37,921 nucleotides of DNA, taken from a virus. The position numbers and the translations under genes are program-made. A model generated the notes under the pieces. That model was not told the DNA's origin, did no database searches, and saw only the letters and a program-made list of their open reading frames with translations. This document shows positions 83-37,488 of this stretch, piece after piece (position 1 is the stretch's first letter; each line of letters starts with the position of its first letter). The DNA is taken from the UHGV virus genome UHGV-0081762. One strand, given 5' to 3'.

Positions 83-100
83 TTTAAATCAATAAGTTAC
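37..100. repeat. attL direct repeat (tRNA 3' half plus 18 bp downstream)
   Basis: attcgtaatgcgaaggtcgGaggttcgactcctCttatcggcaccatttaaatcaataagttac matches 37818-37881 with 2 mismatches. Confidence 0.85.
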
Positions 101-1257
101 CTCACATTTAAGTAAACCACGTTCTCCTCTTGTGCCGTATTTGTGCCATTGCGACTTATAATCGCATCGATTTTGCTCGCGTGCTCGGTGAGATGCCCGG
201 CTGAAAGGTGAGCGTATCTTTGAACCATTTCGAGAGTTTCCCATCCCCCCATCTCTTTAAGTGCAAGAAGAGAGACTCCGGACTGAACCAGCCAGCTTGC
301 CCAGGTGTGTCTCAGGTCATGGAATCGGAAGTTGCTAATGCCTGCCCGCTTTAACGCTCCCTTCCATGCTTTGTTGCTATCGGTTCTCATCTTCCTTACC
401 GCAGCTGTTTTTGTTCCGTCGCTTCGGTAGGCAGGTTTGGTGTGGACAAATACCCATCTCTTATGGAGCCCCTGCTGTTTTCTTAATATCTGGCATGCGG
501 TTTCGTTAAGAGGAACTCCGATCGCATTGCCAGCTTTTGTTTCATCAGGGTGCATCCATGCCATTTTCTTATCCAGATCGACCTGTGACCACTCAAGGTC
601 TGTAACGTTGGAACGGCGAAGGCCTGTAGTTATTGCGAACATGACCACAGGGAAGAAATGAGGAGCTATTTCTGCAAACAGGCGCTTCGATTCCTCTTCT
701 GTAAGCCATCTAATGCGTCCATTCTTAACGCGTGGTGTTGATATTTTGGGAGCCCTGTCAAGCCATCCCCATTCAACAGCCATATTGAGAATAGCGCGAA
801 GTATTGCCAGATGTCGCGTCTTCGTTCCTTTGCTTGCCAGCTTTGGTTTATACTCCGGCACTGGCTTGCCAAGCCGCAAACACCTGTCCCGGCTCATTTC
901 CCAGTTCAGGCGATGGCGGCGGTTTTCCATCCCGTCTACCGCCTCCATTATTTTTTCTGTTGTTATGTCAGAGAGAATGGTTTCTCTGAAGTGCAACATC
1001 CAGAACGATATAATGCTCTTGTCATCATCAATGGACTTCTTATCCGATTTCTCACGCAGCCACCGTATGCAGGCTTCCTTGAATAGCTTTTTCGGCGATT
1101 CCCCGAGATTTTTTACTCTCCACGCTTCTGCTTTCAGACGATCGTGAAGTTCTTGCGCTTGCCTTTTGTCCGATGTTTCAAGAGAGCGTCTAACTCTTGA
1201 TCCATCTGGCGCGACGAAATCGCAGTGCCACGTGCCACCGCGTAGTTTGATTGACAT
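97..1257 (-). CDS. int: Tyrosine integrase (P22/lambda Int family)
   Basis: 386-aa ORF adjacent to tRNA; C-terminal HDLRHTWAS and LEMVQRYAHL motifs typical of tyrosine recombinase catalytic domain. Confidence 0.9.
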   Translation of the reverse strand: MSIKLRGGTWHCDFVAPDGSRVRRSLETSDKRQAQELHDRLKAEAWRVKNLGESPKKLFKEACIRWLREKSDKKSIDDDKSIISFWMLHFRETILSDITTEKIMEAVDGMENRRHRLNWEMSRDRCLRLGKPVPEYKPKLASKGTKTRHLAILRAILNMAVEWGWLDRAPKISTPRVKNGRIRWLTEEESKRLFAEIAPHFFPVVMFAITTGLRRSNVTDLEWSQVDLDKKMAWMHPDETKAGNAIGVPLNETACQILRKQQGLHKRWVFVHTKPAYRSDGTKTAAVRKMRTDSNKAWKGALKRAGISNFRFHDLRHTWASWLVQSGVSLLALKEMGGWETLEMVQRYAHLSAGHLTEHASKIDAIISRNGTNTAQEENVVYLNVR

Positions 1258-1553
1258 GCTTTAACCTCCTGCACATCAACCGCATTCACCGCGCTATTGT
1301 GTCTCACAGACTTAAGCGCCGCAATGCAGTCTGACTTGCAAATGCGATATGGACTTTTAGGTTTATCTGGATTTATCTTTGCGGCCTGAAGTCGTCCACT
1401 TCGTATCCACTGTGTGATAGTGCCTTTGTCTACCTTCAGATACGACGCAGCTTCTTCACGAGTGAAGATTTCTTCTTCCACCTGGAATCTCCATTTATTG
1501 GATTGACATGATTGCGGTAGGTCTGGATATCTTGAGAAATGAACAGGCCTCAT
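1134..1553 (-). CDS. xis: Excisionase-like HTH DNA-binding protein (start uncertain; overlaps int 5' end)
   Basis: ORF directly upstream of int with FTREEAASYLKVDKGTITQWIRSGRL helix-turn-helix segment. Confidence 0.55.
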   Translation of the reverse strand: MRPVHFSRYPDLPQSCQSNKWRFQVEEEIFTREEAASYLKVDKGTITQWIRSGRLQAAKINPDKPKSPYRICKSDCIAALKSVRHNSAVNAVDVQEVKACQSNYAVARGTAISSRQMDQELDALLKHRTKGKRKNFTIV

Positions 1554-1580: not shown

Positions 1581-1925
1581 TTAGTCCTTGCGTAGCTCGC
1601 TGATTCTTCTGTAAGTCTCTGGTGCTTTGTTTCCGTGTATCTTCATTTCCGACTTCAACAGAGCAACGAGGGAATCCCATTCGTTGAGGATTCCTTTGAA
1701 TGCCGGAACGCGCTTTGCAACCTTGTCGAATGAATCTCTGATTTCTGGAATCTGCTCGACAAGCGCAACGCATCGCCGGAAATCGGCTGCGTCATGTGGA
1801 GCGCCGAAGTGATGACCATAGATATTCTTTTTCAGTCCACATGCGATTGAGGCAAGAGTTGCGCTACTGATGCCGACATCGCCAGTCGATTGCCATTTCA
1901 AAACCTTCATAGCCAAATCTGACAT
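1581..1925 (-). CDS. Hypothetical protein (early-left accessory region)
   Basis: 114-aa ORF in operon orientation, downstream of intrinsic terminator. Confidence 0.5.
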   Translation of the reverse strand: MSDLAMKVLKWQSTGDVGISSATLASIACGLKKNIYGHHFGAPHDAADFRRCVALVEQIPEIRDSFDKVAKRVPAFKGILNEWDSLVALLKSEMKIHGNKAPETYRRISELRKD

Positions 1926-1959
1926 TTCTTGTCTCCATAAAACAAAACCCGCCGTAGCG

Positions 1960-1993
1960 AGTTCAGATAAAAGAAAACCCGCACTCGGCGGGT
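1960..1993 (-). terminator. Rho-independent terminator (leftward transcripts)
   Basis: Hairpin aacccgc/gcgggtt with 5-nt loop followed on minus strand by T-rich run (plus-strand ataaaagaaaa). Confidence 0.55.
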
Positions 1994-2151
1994 TCGCATT
2001 TGTTCAAATTGCGCTTACTTCTTGGCATTCTTCCCAGACATTTCCATGTATCGCGATTCGCTGACTTTAGGTGGTGTTAACGACTGCTCGCGATAGCATG
2101 TTAACTTTGTCGCGTTCTTCCTATGATTTTGCTGCAATGTTGAAAACAGAT

Positions 2152-2448
2152 TTATTGATCGCTTATAGTCTTAGACATTTCGAATTTTTCACCGATTGGC
2201 TTTAGCTCATCAATAGCCTTATAGATTTCGTCATTTGATGGTTTTTTACCAGAATAAGCATAGTTGTAAGCATAAAAAACATCTCCTCTGGTATCCTTGA
2301 ACTCCATAACAGAAATCTCTTGAACTTTTCCACTGTTATCACTTATTTCGATAGACTTGATGTCTTGGTGGCTTGTGTGCAGTCTTGGTTCTTTTCCTTC
2401 TTCAAAAATTATTTGCTGATACATGATCTGATCCTTGTAATTCATCAA
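2152..2448 (-). CDS. Hypothetical protein encoded in AT-rich moron-like segment
   Basis: 98-aa ORF; markedly AT-rich compared with flanking genes; terminator immediately downstream. Confidence 0.5.
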   Translation of the reverse strand: MMNYKDQIMYQQIIFEEGKEPRLHTSHQDIKSIEISDNSGKVQEISVMEFKDTRGDVFYAYNYAYSGKKPSNDEIYKAIDELKPIGEKFEMSKTISDQ

Positions 2449-2511
2449 ATAGTTAACAACAAAAAGTGAATTTGATTGTACCTAAAAATTCTTTTGCTTT
2501 CTGCTGCTGAT

Positions 2512-2832
2512 TTAGTCATTGATATTCACCTTTATCGCGAACACCTTTACCGGTTTATCTCCGAAGTGTGGATGTGTGATTGTCTTCACTTCATATCCGC
2601 CATACGGGACGTCAATTCTGCGACTGGAATCGTCGCGCTTCGGATATCCCTTTGTGATAATCAGGCGGTCATACTCGCGGAACATAATTCGCTTATTCCA
2701 GTAGTCATTAAACAGGCGATACTCTTCCGTTTTCTCTCCGCGAATCATGGCATCGAAGTATTCACCTTTAACGGCAAGTTGCAGGTTAGCCACGGTTAAC
2801 CTCCTGAGGCGGTTCTGCTGCAAAATACGCAA
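2512..2832 (-). CDS. ASCH/DUF3850-like domain protein
   Basis: 106-aa ORF with GEYFDAMIRGEKTEEYR...REYD pattern resembling ASCH/PUA-like fold proteins common in phages (from memory). Confidence 0.45.
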   Translation of the reverse strand: MRILQQNRLRRLTVANLQLAVKGEYFDAMIRGEKTEEYRLFNDYWNKRIMFREYDRLIITKGYPKRDDSSRRIDVPYGGYEVKTITHPHFGDKPVKVFAIKVNIND

Positions 2833-3691
2833 TACCTTTATCCCAGATGGATTTTATGGTCGTCCACGTGACTGGTACTTTAATTTCAATCCGCCCGCTA
2901 CCGTCACAGGTATCGCAATCATCATCGCCAAAGCATTCCGGGCAGCTGATAAACGTAGTTTCTGAAAATTCACCGGATAGCGCACCCTTAGCGCCGTTCT
3001 CGGCTGTTAGTCTCTTCGGCACCACGACCCAACCATCCGGAGTTACCGGAGAGTTGCCATTTACATCGAAGTTTGGCTCTGCGTCCTGAACCAGGAGGAT
3101 GTAACCATTCTTGGCAGTATCAAGTTCTAACGCCTCGGTGACGGTGCCGAAATAGCGATTGCCTAAATCAGCATCACAAGTGCTTACATCAATGGAAACT
3201 TCCATGCCCTCGATTAATTCTGGCAAGTTGTAAGTTTGGCTTACAGGTTCGGCACCATGAAGCATGGCGTCGCTCCGCTCTATGCCATCCAGCGCGATTC
3301 GCAGTGCCTGAATTGTGGTAATGCTATCGTTTGGGGCTATTCCATATCGCTCGAATACAGCGATATGACCGCGCATAATCTCAGGCGTAAGCTCTTTGTA
3401 AGCATAAGCAAGCGACCCTGATGCATCATCCGGCACAACCGACGCAGGCGCGGCAGCATAAACAGGAATAACGTCCGCTTGCTCTTTATTGCTTTCATCC
3501 GTTAAAGCCCAGAATAATTTCCCGGCCGGATGTTTGAAAATATAAGCAACTGGTTCTGCTTCCAGCGATGCCAGAGCAATTCGTGCCAGTTCTTCCGCTT
3601 CTTCTGCTGGCAGTACAACGTTGCTACCCGGTCCGTATGTTTCGCGCCACTGATTGATTGTCAGTAGTCGATCTTTGGCAATAGTGGTCAT
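2786..3691 (-). CDS. Hypothetical 301-aa protein with C-terminal Cys-rich zinc-ribbon-like motif
   Basis: Long ORF; C-terminal CPECFGDDDCDTCDGSGRIEI motif. Confidence 0.55.
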   Translation of the reverse strand: MTTIAKDRLLTINQWRETYGPGSNVVLPAEEAEELARIALASLEAEPVAYIFKHPAGKLFWALTDESNKEQADVIPVYAAAPASVVPDDASGSLAYAYKELTPEIMRGHIAVFERYGIAPNDSITTIQALRIALDGIERSDAMLHGAEPVSQTYNLPELIEGMEVSIDVSTCDADLGNRYFGTVTEALELDTAKNGYILLVQDAEPNFDVNGNSPVTPDGWVVVPKRLTAENGAKGALSGEFSETTFISCPECFGDDDCDTCDGSGRIEIKVPVTWTTIKSIWDKGIAYFAAEPPQEVNRG

Positions 3692-9554: not shown

Positions 9555-9944
9555 TTAGTCAGCGAAGGTTAAGACGAGAATTACCTTAATGATGTCTGCT
9601 ACAACAGACACGGCCATAGATAAACCAAAGACAATCCAAGCCATAGAGATGTCTTCACTACCATCGTATAGAGTTCCGTAATCACTGGTGTAAGGCGTAA
9701 ATGTCGCGCCTTGATACAATAGGTATAAGCTTGATCCATAGAGAATAAATGCAGATATCCCTTGTATTGCCATGATCACCAGAATCATGAAACGAGCTGA
9801 TCTATGCGCCCAAGCCTGGCTTATTTTTTCTGATAGAGATTTCGCAATAAAAGCATGCGCTAAGCCGTAAATTGTCGAGATTGCCAACATCCCAAAAAAG
9901 CTTGCTATAGCGGTTCCAACCATAAGCGCCCCTTGCGTGATCAA
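9555..9944 (-). CDS. Small integral membrane protein (about 4 TM segments) co-transcribed downstream of cI (rex/sie position)
   Basis: 129-aa ORF, ATGA overlap with cI stop; hydrophobic segments. Confidence 0.6.
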   Translation of the reverse strand: MITQGALMVGTAIASFFGMLAISTIYGLAHAFIAKSLSEKISQAWAHRSARFMILVIMAIQGISAFILYGSSLYLLYQGATFTPYTSDYGTLYDGSEDISMAWIVFGLSMAVSVVADIIKVILVLTFAD

Positions 9945-10657
9945 ACCAGCCTTAGTTTTGTCTCAATTGCAACGCCTATAATCTTGCAGTTTCCATTGAT
10001 TGGCACGAGAGGCCATGCAGGGTTAAGTCCCTTGAGGTATTTATTTCCGCCGTCGATTATCAGCTTCTTGAATGTTGCTTCGTTAGAGTCAGAAAGTTTT
10101 GCTATGACCAAGCTGCCGTTGATCGCCTCCCTTCCGGTATCGAAAAGAACGAATGTTCCCTCTGGAATGCTTAACCCAACCGGTGCCGTCATTGAATCAC
10201 CTTCCACTTTAAGCCAAAACGCATTACCTTGAATATGCGCGTCAGACTCAAGCCAAACATCTATGTCTTTAATGGTGTATGGTTCGCATGCTTCACACCA
10301 CGAGCCAGCCTGGATACTGCTTAACACCGGATACCTCTTTCCTGCTCTGTATTCCCCTGCATACCTTACGTTGGCATCGCTCTTAAGGCTTTCTGCCTGT
10401 TCTGCAACCTTGGCAGCAATTGACTGGCTAAAATCAGCAATTGAGACTTGCAACAATCGTGCAAAACCAGATGCAACCTCAACGTTTAGCGCATTTCTGC
10501 CATTAAGATAATGCCCTACCGCTCCTTGGGTGATACCCAGTTCATCAGCGATTGAGTATTGGGTTATTCCCAATTCTTTCTTTTTTGACTCATACAAAGC
10601 CTTAAGCCGCTTAGCGTCTTCCAGCTGTTCTGTCGTCAGTGATTTTTTATTTTCCAT
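9941..10657 (-). CDS. cI: CI-type repressor (HTH plus S24 LexA-like peptidase domain)
   Basis: 238 aa; N-terminus TTEQLEDAKRLKALYESKKKELGITQ closely resembles lambda CI; C-terminal FWLKVEGDSMTAP and FKKL motifs. Confidence 0.9.
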   Translation of the reverse strand: MENKKSLTTEQLEDAKRLKALYESKKKELGITQYSIADELGITQGAVGHYLNGRNALNVEVASGFARLLQVSIADFSQSIAAKVAEQAESLKSDANVRYAGEYRAGKRYPVLSSIQAGSWCEACEPYTIKDIDVWLESDAHIQGNAFWLKVEGDSMTAPVGLSIPEGTFVLFDTGREAINGSLVIAKLSDSNEATFKKLIIDGGNKYLKGLNPAWPLVPINGNCKIIGVAIETKLRLV

Positions 10658-18234: not shown

Positions 18235-18309
18235 GGGTCAGTCGTATAAAGGTCATTACGGAAGGCTGTTAACCTTCTTATCGTGGTTCGAGTCCACGCT
18301 GTCCCGCCA
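18235..18309 (+). tRNA. tRNA-like gene, probable anticodon GUU (Asn); one acceptor-stem and one D-stem mismatch
   Basis: Hand-folded: acceptor GGGTCAG/CTGTCCC, anticodon stem GAAGG/CCTTC with loop CTGTTAA, T-arm CGTGG-TTCGAGT-CCACG, GCCA end. Confidence 0.45.
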
Positions 18310-18314
18310 AATAT

Positions 18315-18390
18315 GCTGGTTTAGCTCCAATGGTAGAGCAGTCGCCTTGTAAGCGAATGGGTAGCGGTTCAAGTCCGTTAACCAGCACCA
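18315..18390 (+). tRNA. tRNA, probable anticodon UGU (Thr)
   Basis: Hand-folded: acceptor GCTGGTT/AACCAGC, D-arm GCTC-CAATGGTA-GAGC, anticodon loop CTTGTAA, T-loop TTCAAGT, ACCA end. Confidence 0.6.
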
Positions 18391-34430: not shown

Positions 34431-36797
34431 ATGACAGACATTACAGCCAATGTTGTAGTGAGTATGCCTTCGCAACTTTTCACTATGGCGCGTTCTTTTA
34501 AAGCAGTAGCCAACGGCAAAATTTATATCGGAAAAATTGACACTGACCCGGTAAGTCCAGAAAACCAGATTCAGGTTTATGTAGAGAACGAAGACGGCTC
34601 TCATGTTCCTGTTTCGCAACCAATCATCATTAACGCTGCTGGATATCCGGTATATAACGGGCAGATTGCCAAATTCGTAACTGTGCAAGGCCATTCTATG
34701 GCTGTATATGATGCATATGGCACTCAGCAGTTTTATTTTCCAAATGTATTAAAATACGATCCTGATCAACTTAGGGAAGAGATTTTTTCTGACCGTATGC
34801 TGCTAATTACGCCACAGCATTATGGGGCGAAAGGTGACGGTGTTAACGATGATACGGTGGCATTTATTGCAGCAGCAAATGCTCTTGGAGATGGTGGAAA
34901 GTTATATATTCCAACTGGAACATATAATTTAATTGGACCAGTTAATATACCACCAGTGAATATGTGTGGCGATGGACAGGGTAAAACGGTTATTGTGTTT
35001 GATAATACCACATCACCAAAAGATGGATTTGTTTTCGCTGCACCAACTAAGCATGATGTTGAATTTGGTTTAAGTCACCTTACAATTAAAAGCAAAGGCG
35101 GGAATGGCGCTAATGCCATATATACCCCAAGAGGTGTCGGGCTTAATCATCTAAGGCCAAAACCAACATTTAGATTTTTATCTTTCTGTTCTGAGACTGC
35201 AAATATTGATTCTGATGAATTCGCACAGAAGTACGGTTGGGAATGGTCTTTTAACTGTGGTGATAGTTGGCAGTTCACAATCGAACGCATTGATGCTGTT
35301 GGATGTTATCAGATAGCCAAAAGTTATAATGAACAGTTCCTTGATGGATTCATTCGCACCGCTCCAGAAGAAGGTATTTTATCCATGCGTGTGAGTGATA
35401 TCACAACGCATAACGTTGCCAATTTTTTTGAAATTAAGCAGAAGACATATTTCAATCTTACCAATGTCGATGTTGCTAGATCCCTAAACGGTGTTTATGA
35501 TGCTCAGGATAGAGTGTTCGAATCAAATCGCTATGCGTATGGTGAGTCTATATGGACAAACGTTATCATTAATAGCCAGCTTCACCCTATTAATCTTGAT
35601 AACAGATTTCTTTTGATTGCTAATGGACTAGCCATACATAGAGCAGGAGGAGGATATGACCACGGAAATGAATGGGTAGGAATTAGACTCATCAGACCAA
35701 GAGTGTGCACCATTAATGGATTGGAGATTAGCAGTGCATCAGGTTATACGACGACTAAAAAAGGAATAATTATAGATGGTGGCGATGCAAACAACTTCAT
35801 TAATGTAAGTTTTGGTACATTGGATATTGGAGCTCAGATAGGAGTAACATCATCAATACATGGAGCAAATCAGGCGACAAACTTTTCCAATATTAGCATT
35901 AATGCTAATGTCACAACATTACTTAACATACAAAACGCACGTGGTTTTAATTGCAGCCAGTATACTGCATCTCCTCTCTACACTCTTGCCAATTTCATGG
36001 TCAATGATGACAAAGTAAAAAACACATTTACACTTACAAATATTGATGGCAAAAATAATTACACTGATAACTCTATTTATCTTTATAATCAGGAAGCATC
36101 AGAAGATACCAAAAGATGGAGGATAGATACTCGTACCGGATACACACTATCCACTCAGAAAGACAATGGTGCACAAGGTAATAACGCTATTATTATTCGT
36201 CGCAGTGGAATAATTGTAGACTCTATAGAATTACGCACAAAAAACGATTCTGGCGGATATCTTCTTCATACATCACCTGAAACTCATTTTTCTGGCCTTA
36301 TAAAACCAACTGTTGATAATGTTAACTCAAACGGAACATCAGCATTTCGATGGTCACAGGTATACGCTGGTACTGGCAGTATCAACACGTCGAATGAAGA
36401 GCTGAAATTGCGTATTGAGGCTGACGAGAAAACAACAGAATCAGAGCGTCTTGCTGCGCTTGAAATAAAGAAAAATATCTGGAGGTTTAAATTTAAAGAT
36501 GCAGTAAAGATCAAGAGTGATGGCGCTCGGATTCATTTCGGTGTTGGTGCACAAACTGTAGGTAATATTCTCAGAAAATACGGTCTTGACCCTAATAACT
36601 ATGCGTTCTGGTGTTATGATGAATGGGATGATATTTATGCTCCAGAGGTATTAATTAGGAGTGTTAAAAACAATGAAACAGGAGAGTGGTACGACGAGGA
36701 ATATTACACAGGAAGGCAGGTTATTATTAAACCTGCTGGTTATCAGTATGGTATCAGATACGAGGAACTTCTGATGTTTATTCTTATGTTTATTTAA
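34431..36797 (+). CDS. Tailspike: P22-like N-terminal head-binding domain, pectate-lyase-like beta-helix, C-terminal S74-type intramolecular chaperone
   Basis: N-terminus [40 protein letters not shown]...KYDPDQ matches P22 gp9; [17 protein letters not shown] motif; C-terminal [10 protein letters not shown]...GIRYEEL. Confidence 0.85.
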
Positions 36798-36800
36798 AAT

Positions 36801-36820
36801 ATAGCGCAGGGATGCGCTAT
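36801..36820. terminator. Bidirectional hairpin between convergent tailspike and acetyltransferase genes
   Basis: Perfect inverted repeat atagcgc-aggga... gcgctat. Confidence 0.5.
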
Positions 36821-37488
36821 TCAACAATTTCACCGGATGGAAGAATTGTAAATCTCTTATAAGATGCCTTCTTTTTATCTTTTACAGCATTAAACTGCTC
36901 TAAAAAAGTAGTCGGTGTCCTTGTATCAATCCCAATAAATGAGCTTAAATCATATTCCCACCATTGGCTATCCAGTAACTCTTTGATGATTGATTCCTCA
37001 AATCTGTACCCTAGGTGTTTTGCAGAAACGCCACCTACGATTGAATATGGCTCGACATTTTTGGTGACAATAGCGCCAGCAGCAATAACAGCGCCAGTAC
37101 CAATAGTTATACCTCGCCTGATAACCGCATTTGCACCTATCCATACGTCATGACCAATTCTTGGTATACCATGCTTCTGTTGAGAGAGGTCGCGTTGCAT
37201 TCCTATACCATCAGGGATTTTAAAACCATTTTTTGAGCCAAAGAAAAAAGGATGCGTAGAAAAATACCCAGTTTCATGCTCGCCAAGGCCAATTTTTACT
37301 CCTGGAGCAACTGAACAAAATCTACCCATCGTAAAGCCGCCGAGCATACAATTAGCGCCAAAGTAGGAGAATGCTCCAACATTTATTGGGGCAACAACAA
37401 GACCTGAAGCATGAAAAAAACATTGCTCCTCGAAGCTAACTTTTGCTTGTGGAGTCATCTGAACGCTTAACATTGCATCAATCACCAT
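36817..37488 (-). CDS. Hexapeptide-repeat acetyltransferase, XAT family (CatB/Vat-like)
   Basis: [45 protein letters not shown] and [16 protein letters not shown] align with CatB-type chloramphenicol acetyltransferase as recalled. Confidence 0.7.

Follow-up and report, generated by a model that had tools for sequence, protein, structure and literature searches.

An AT-rich segment in the early-left operon of the lambdoid prophage UHGV-0081762 raises the question of whether it holds a gene that was acquired, and is expressed, independently of the operon around it. The original prediction, made from the letters of the sequence, answered that it does: it described a 98-aa ORF (2152-2448) with an AT-rich putative promoter upstream and a minus-strand terminator of its own downstream, in a context typical of lysogenic-conversion or defence/anti-defence genes. 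The whole 37,921 nt stretch of DNA that was analyzed is called the window, and all positions refer to it.

Genomic setting and base composition

The window is a lambdoid prophage integrated at tRNA-Thr(cgt), and the features that frame the segment are as follows.

7-82: tRNA-Thr(cgt), the integration site
97-1257, minus strand: integrase (386 aa)
1134-1553, minus strand: HTH excisionase-like gene
1581-1925, minus strand: 114-aa gene (phrog_1229)
1944-2514, minus strand: probable mobile cassette of 571 bp, between the ASCH gene and the 114-aa gene
2512-2832, minus strand: ASCH-like gene
beyond ASCH and before the repressor, minus strand: Ea22-like, Gp157 and RecT genes
9941-10657: S24/HTH CI-type repressor
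after the repressor, plus strand: CII gene, replication O gene and DnaB-type helicase

The ORF lies within the leftward operon and is co-oriented with it, so its assignment to the early-left operon stands, and windowed GC content agrees that the segment is distinctly AT-rich. Positions 1982-2514 have 36.8% GC versus 47.5% across the whole window, a value equalled or undercut by only 1.65% of all 533-bp windows. For 300-bp windows centred on 2200-2500 the GC fraction is 0.32-0.36, with about 0.48 on either side; ORF 2152-2448 itself has 34.3% GC, and the flanking genes 48.1% (114-aa gene) and 46.4% (ASCH). The sole further zone of comparably low GC in the window lies at 35.4-37.1 kb.

That second zone (35368-37125, minimum 34.7%) takes in the 3' half of a 788-aa tailspike-like ORF (34431-36797, plus strand) and also spans a convergent 223-aa ORF (36817-37488, minus strand), which by the look of its sequence is hexapeptide-repeat acyltransferase-like; the zone could represent an O-antigen-modifying moron located at the prophage's right end. 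The phage also carries two tRNA genes of its own, Asn(gtt) and Thr(tgt), mid-prophage at 18235-18390.

Limits of the cassette and its empty site

A prophage of E. coli G4/9 provides the empty site. Its backbone matches the window (int, xis-like, 114-aa and ASCH genes, at tRNA-Thr), and just 72 bp separate its 114-aa and ASCH genes. In the alignment with G4/9, the left junction falls in the U-tract between two tandem terminators (T1 and T2, see below), with similarity reaching window position 1980. At the right junction similarity resumes at TCATTG within the last ASCH codons, and the ASCH protein ends in ...VNIND* in the window versus ...VNIGNE* in the empty-site prophage. A BLAST comparison with related loci gave these limits: exactly 2514 to 1944 is common to four Salmonella loci, including Gifsy-1 and Gifsy-2, while the match to a Citrobacter prophage runs from 2513 to 2100 and E. 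coli copies share the cassette plus varying lengths of flank. The 5' boundary of the Salmonella and Citrobacter homology is the stop codon of whichever gene stands upstream. The parts within and at the edges of the unit are listed below.

2512-2520, minus strand: right junction, in the last ASCH codons
2425-2514, minus strand: leader, from the cassette 5' boundary to the start codon
2503-2498, minus strand: candidate -35, CAGAAA (poor match), 17-nt spacer to the -10
2480-2475, minus strand: candidate -10, TACAAT
2432-2436, minus strand: Shine-Dalgarno sequence AAGGA, 7 nt upstream of the ATG at 2424
2152-2424, minus strand: gene for a 90-aa acidic orphan protein (phrog_7123)
2015-2144, minus strand: decayed theta (HolE/HOT-like, PF06440) pseudogene, detected by tblastn with prophage theta
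1966-1995, minus strand: T1 intrinsic terminator, stem 1995-1975 plus U-tract
1936-1964, minus strand: T2 intrinsic terminator, stem 1964-1945 plus U-tract

Independent acquisition is thereby confirmed, with the site empty in G4/9 and the cassette sitting in a different operon in Gifsy-1 and Gifsy-2. The unit is placed between genes that are adjacent in a close relative, its base composition deviates from that of the window, and it has a downstream terminator, T1 falling within the unit and T2 on its border. Window 1944-2514 is probably a mobile accessory-gene cassette and an ordinary moron, and the alignments show it to be composite, consisting of the leader, the 90-aa orphan gene, the wreck of a theta gene, T1 and T2.

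Distribution of the cassette

In Salmonella the cassette belongs to the rightward operon, where it occupies a nin-region site flanked by dinI and an Ea22-like gene (STM1017/STM2623). Its position in E. coli is always early-left, near int and xis, behind at least five integrase/attachment backgrounds: torS, the ybhC / att-lambda side, a yniD-side integrase, an HK022-like integrase by a cusB-like RND efflux gene, and the window's own 386-aa integrase. It is rare there, being present in one of 5,426 complete E. coli genomes (strain Rb-50, where the gene is frameshifted); the flanks match in 3,072 of the 5,426, and most of these matches are without insert. A scan of GTDB representative genomes found no relative, and scans of metagenomes and IMG/VR returned mostly Gifsy-like copies. 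Since other prophages hold different cargo at the same place (theta, DnaJ-like, cytosine methyltransferase and DUF4752 genes), the site is a moron slot.

The equivalent slot of Gifsy-1 in S. Typhimurium D23580, beside dinI, holds a different, 633-bp gene, STMMW_26411, which is induced anaerobically (up to 879 TPM) and was highlighted as a candidate accessory gene (PMC7067206). It shares the slot and was rejected as an ortholog, the gene being a different one; because D23580 Gifsy-1 carries it there, the dinI-side slot is itself a moron hotspot.

The 90-aa gene and its product

The gene of the original prediction is real, but it begins at the ATG at 2424 and encodes 90 aa, not 98. Citrobacter and the distant homologs lack the upstream TTG/ATG that the longer reading requires, and the distant homologs all start at the methionine equivalent to that of MYQQ; the gene is therefore taken as 90 aa. 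The Shine-Dalgarno sequence is kept in all aligned leaders. The ORF is also conserved, as the original reading needed it to be. It matches the phrog_7123 profile over its full length (E=1.4e-53; residues 2-97 against profile positions 1-96 of 96), within a family of about 42 protein clusters whose named sources are all Enterobacterales (E. coli, E. albertii, Salmonella, Citrobacter and Obesumbacterium) and whose examined genomic contexts are without exception temperate phages or prophages. Members down to 34% identity retain the length and the motifs F7, D44-x-R46-x-D48, P62 and AID-x-LKP-x-G. Relative to the Citrobacter allele dN/dS is 0.13, and longer-range values are 0.11-0.14.

Homology and structure searches gave the phrog_7123 family and nothing beyond it. 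No match was found among Pfam, NCBIfam or PDB sequences. An AlphaFold2 model built on 20 diverse sequences (pLDDT 84.3) has six beta strands, one helix and a short C-terminal strand, and a fold search with it returned no match, including none to known anti-defence proteins. PADLOC-DB profiles gave no hit at E<=0.1, leaving the suggested defence/anti-defence role unsupported. Two long repeat proteins recovered by exhaustive HMMER search (P0031 and P0032) were rejected as homologs, their matches being spurious and summed over repeats; their Pfam content is a tail-fibre chaperone and leucine-rich/receptor-L repeats.

The E. coli and Salmonella alleles are mosaic, with 99% DNA identity in the C-terminal half and 85% in the N-terminal half, where dN/dS is about 1 on counts too small to claim positive selection. 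Two Salmonella alleles differ by 8.5 nonsynonymous versus 0.5 synonymous changes, also small counts and not significant. Two sites of instability were observed within the ORF. The octanucleotide CTTGATGT has undergone a five-copy expansion in Rb-50 (L003, around 3131-3461) that causes its frameshift, and P0018 has an in-frame 16-aa insertion at the same spot, which suggests a slippage-prone sequence in the variable N-terminal half of the gene. The other site is a homopolymer (2274-2279, an A run on the plus strand and a T run on the coding strand), where a number of alleles of the Salmonella type (P0023, P0025, P0041 and P0042, the last alone representing 12 contigs) have shifted frame and end in ...MLTTMLILVKNHQMTKSIRLLMS; they may be real pseudogenes, phase variants or sequencing errors.

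A theta pseudogene and tandem terminators

Between the stop codon of the ORF and T1 there are 157 nt that, judged by sequence similarity, are a theta remnant in origin and not a 3' UTR. With the theta of L005 as tblastn query, an N-terminal piece (FNIAAKS*EERDKVNM, with an in-frame TAG) was found at 5e-4, and the C-terminal 26 codons plus stop, YREQSLTPPKVSESRYMEMSGKNAKK*, in another frame at E=2e-8; a Citrobacter theta matched the stretch at 4e-5. No intact ORF for DNA_pol3_theta (PF06440, about 76-80 aa) is left, only the two fragments in different frames and the in-frame stop. DNA homology to the theta 3' end and the T1-T2 pair of L005 spans window 2099-1923, and E. coli AHB29 / L005 has an almost full-length theta, annotated as frameshifted, followed by the same pair of terminators. 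In Citrobacter and L034 an inactivated theta of full length stands downstream of the 90-aa gene, and the Gifsy-2 remnant has a further 42-bp deletion. A 40-aa ORF within the remnant (2015-2137) was considered as a small protein and rejected, as it is the theta C-terminal remnant and its substitutions in Gifsy-2 are all nonsynonymous.

The terminator that had been predicted at about 1960-1993 on the minus strand is present and strong, and a second one, missed in the first reading, follows it. T1 has the stem GAACCCGC-CGAGT-GCGGGTTT and then the U-tract TCTTTTAT (also given as UCUUUUAU), with a fold of -12 kcal/mol (z -2.96); T2, with the U-tract TGTTTTAT / UGUUUUAU, folds at -11 kcal/mol (z -4.65). 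In each case 0 of 200 shuffles were as stable, so that both combine the hairpin, the U-tract and the stability expected of Rho-independent terminators. The T2 U-tract extends into the ribosome-binding site of the 114-aa gene. The two are near-duplicates, and an alternative nested two-helix fold across 1936-2000 (minus strand) reaches -28.5 kcal/mol (z -4.9). In an Rfam scan no family reached threshold; hits to isrJ, rsmX and similar families were rejected as sub-threshold terminator look-alikes.

Whether the gene owns these terminators is a separate matter. They do lie within the mobile unit or at its edge, but neither originated with the ORF. Because T1 directly follows theta in L005, it is theta's native terminator, carried along with the cassette, and it also stands directly behind the theta remnant in Gifsy-2. 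T2 is a backbone element and the left recombination anchor: it is 98% identical to the 'tL4 terminator' annotated in the HK022 record X51962, recurs in about 95 lambdoid phage records and is present in the empty-site G4/9 prophage.

Theta neighbourhood and the role of the protein

A phage theta gene or theta pseudogene directly adjoins the 90-aa family in four of its five sequence lineages, and in three of these the stop of one gene and the start of the other are counted as overlapping. In an 84-aa lineage (P0027, P0028 and P0034; L035, L036, L037 and L056) the end of theta overlaps the gene in an ATGA, and in a 76-aa lineage (P0029 and P0038; L027, L028, L032 and L033) theta ends 5 nt before it. 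The window/Gifsy and Citrobacter/L034 lineages have a theta pseudogene directly after the gene, the distance being 22-27 nt in L029-31 and L034. Only the P0026 lineage (L025/L026) has no theta nearby. Other frequent neighbours of the family are DinI, Dam and SSB genes. In L025 a 153-nt intergenic leader with a TATAAT precedes the gene, and a strong terminator of its own lies 19 nt downstream (1770-1789).

Because theta adjoins the gene in four of five lineages, a role at the replisome is proposed: the protein may be a small, acidic cytoplasmic one that, together with theta-type proteins, targets the Pol III core of the host (epsilon/theta) or a neighbouring DNA-damage pathway. The proposal is tentative and, taken by itself, rather improbable, although it is the single most likely function, with a lysogen-expressed exclusion or anti-defence role an equally open rival. 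The link to theta is guilt by association and no more; these variable prophage regions often carry theta in any case, and in the window cassette theta itself is dead. A more specific version, which we regard as speculative, is that the family is an unrecognised partner of phage theta, forming with it a two-gene module, often translationally coupled, that would act on the host epsilon-theta; the version in the window would have become autonomous and lysogen-expressed, and would now work with the host's own theta.

The rival, a lysogen-expressed phage-exclusion, defence or anti-defence factor whose proximity to theta simply reflects shared cargo slots, is unlikely as well. It would fit a small, acidic protein that is expressed constitutively in lysogens (as the Salmonella ortholog is, see below), the presence of methyltransferases among the slot cargo and of Abc2 nearby, the recurrent frameshift and repeat-expansion alleles, and the divergence of the N-terminal half (dN/dS about 1; 8.5 nonsynonymous versus 0.5 synonymous changes), although those counts are small and not significant. 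Against it, no hit in PADLOC and no fold match to a known anti-defence protein were obtained, and the adjacency to theta with overlapping codons in several divergent lineages would be hard to obtain by chance.

Expression in the lysogen and the candidate promoter

The Gifsy-2 ortholog of the 90-aa gene is STMMW_10291 (= SL1344_0956 = STM1018 = the Gifsy-1 copy STM2622; PMC6333337 S2 Table), and the gene lengths and gaps of 312 / 77 / 291 / 291 / 234 bp agree with the Gifsy-2 locus (L001, L007). In published RNA-seq data it reaches 62-581 TPM in 17 of 17 conditions, while across the same 17 conditions the gene immediately upstream, STMMW_10281, has 5-33 TPM and the next one, STMMW_10271, two genes upstream, 0-3.7 TPM; the downstream lytic genes ninG and Q are near 0 TPM (PMC7067206 Table S5), and the authors state that the Gifsy-2 lytic genes are unexpressed (PMC7067206). 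Raw counts for strains 4/74 and D23580 show the same contrast between the ortholog and its neighbours (PMC6333337 S2 Data). The gene was flagged in the published RNA-seq as highly expressed and of unknown function but is absent from the paper's text, and a full-text literature search by the names of the Salmonella ortholog found no paper discussing it. Since the ortholog is transcribed while the genes upstream are near silent, there must be a promoter close upstream of it, and the only upstream sequence that it has in common with the window gene is the leader. Independent expression in lysogens is thus shown for the Gifsy-2 ortholog, and for the window gene it is predicted by analogy.

The leader always accompanies the ORF and is conserved in all six aligned contexts, irrespective of the upstream gene. 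Its intergenic part (2449-2511) has 28.6% GC. An invariant block, AAATC..CAGCAGAA, precedes the -10-like TACAAT, which is identical in five E. coli/Salmonella contexts and is TATAAT in Citrobacter; transcription is predicted to start from it at about 2467-2468. A two-hexamer sigma-70 consensus scan found no sense-strand promoter in the leader of the window, Gifsy-2 or Citrobacter, and for that reason the candidate promoter was placed by conservation only. Where the original prediction put its putative promoter there are thus the AT-rich leader and a conserved candidate -10, TACAAT. A promoter role for TACAAT would follow, by analogy, from the fact that the ortholog is transcribed in lysogens. 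The gene of the distant lineages stands behind theta within an operon, so that a promoter of its own is not shared by the whole family.

Within the first 8 kb, the sequence closest to a sigma-70 promoter is TTGAAA-18-TATAGT (10 of 12) on the plus strand at 2140-2169, which is directed against the ORF from its 3' end, in antisense; a 1-nt indel gives it a 19-nt spacer in relatives.

The gene could instead be a plain early-left accessory gene without a promoter of its own, made only lytically from antiterminated pL, with its low GC reflecting merely a foreign origin and the terminators being ordinary tL-type sites overridden by antitermination. The failed consensus scan, the shared orientation of gene and operon, the translational coupling of the gene in operons of distant lineages and the existence of T2 in cassette-free backbones are all compatible with this. 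We nevertheless consider it improbable, as an ortholog with 88% leader identity and the same -10 is expressed at least 10-fold above its upstream neighbours in lysogens in which the Gifsy-2 lytic genes are at <=10 TPM, and the leader is kept across unrelated upstream genes. That the ORF is spurious or decaying and the real product a non-coding RNA, sense to T1/T2 or antisense from 2140-2169 (plus strand), is very hard to credit, since the sub-threshold Rfam isrJ hit (1974-2044; 17.4 bits versus a cut-off of 37), the plus-strand TTGAAA-18-TATAGT site and the frameshifted alleles that might be cited for it are set against purifying selection at longer range (dN/dS 0.11-0.14), homologs at 34-45% identity that retain length and motifs, a confidently predicted fold (pLDDT 84.3), a 19-nt spacer at the plus-strand site in relatives and no Rfam family above threshold.

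Under the preferred reading, that of a mobile moron with its own promoter, the leader promoter (-10 TACAAT, poor -35) would drive roughly constitutive transcription in the lysogen, and T1 and T2 would end that transcript and so spare xis, int and the 114-aa gene any run-on. After induction, pL transcription under antitermination would probably read through T1/T2 in the lytic cycle, and the gene would also be expressed early. As its junctions lie in conserved terminator and boundary sequences, the cassette probably moves by recombination, and it would spread by homologous recombination at those sequences, which are shared among lambdoid phages.

Comparison with known systems

The concept of the moron reportedly goes back to Juhala and Hendrix, and is reviewed in 'The moron comes of age' (PMC3594210); bor and lom of lambda are morons of a lambdoid phage. 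The window cassette resembles these in being an extra unit of deviant composition between genes that are adjacent in relatives, with a downstream terminator and, as the ortholog shows, transcription in the lysogen. It differs from them in being composite, dragging along a dead theta and a terminator inherited from it, in being co-oriented inside the early-left operon where they occupy the late region, and in having a non-canonical candidate promoter.

Its closest counterparts are STM1018 of Gifsy-2 and STM2622 of Gifsy-1, orthologs with 83% amino-acid identity that are carried on the same 571-bp cassette with leader, theta remnant, T1 and T2. Unlike the window copy, those of Gifsy are in the rightward nin region upstream of dinI and have the extra 42-bp deletion in theta. 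The likeness to HK022 tL4 (X51962) extends over window 1932-1980 (98% identical) and to the equivalent leftward position upstream of xis and int, but in the window T2 is preceded by a near-duplicate, T1, brought by the cassette. Window 2015-2144 is recognisably derived from a gene like those of HolE theta and phage P1 HOT (PF06440), from which it differs in that the start codon is gone, a TAG interrupts the frame and an internal deletion shifts it. In other lineages the 90-aa family has an intact theta gene as its immediate neighbour, but the 90-aa protein does not itself resemble theta.

Significance

As a moron the cassette is ordinary, yet genuine, and a well-documented case that carries an uncharacterised protein. 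It is a clean and fully delimited example of how a moron is built, from a gene together with the remains of a former neighbour and that neighbour's terminator, and it documents how unrelated lambdoid phages exchange material at conserved terminator and boundary sequences, from the leftward early operon of one to the rightward early operon of another or the reverse. Having two terminators in tandem offers a simple reason why a constitutively transcribed gene would be tolerated so close to xis and int on their upstream side. The protein belongs to the unexplained set that Gifsy-2 of Salmonella expresses strongly in lysogeny, and its recurrent pairing with theta is the first testable lead to its function.
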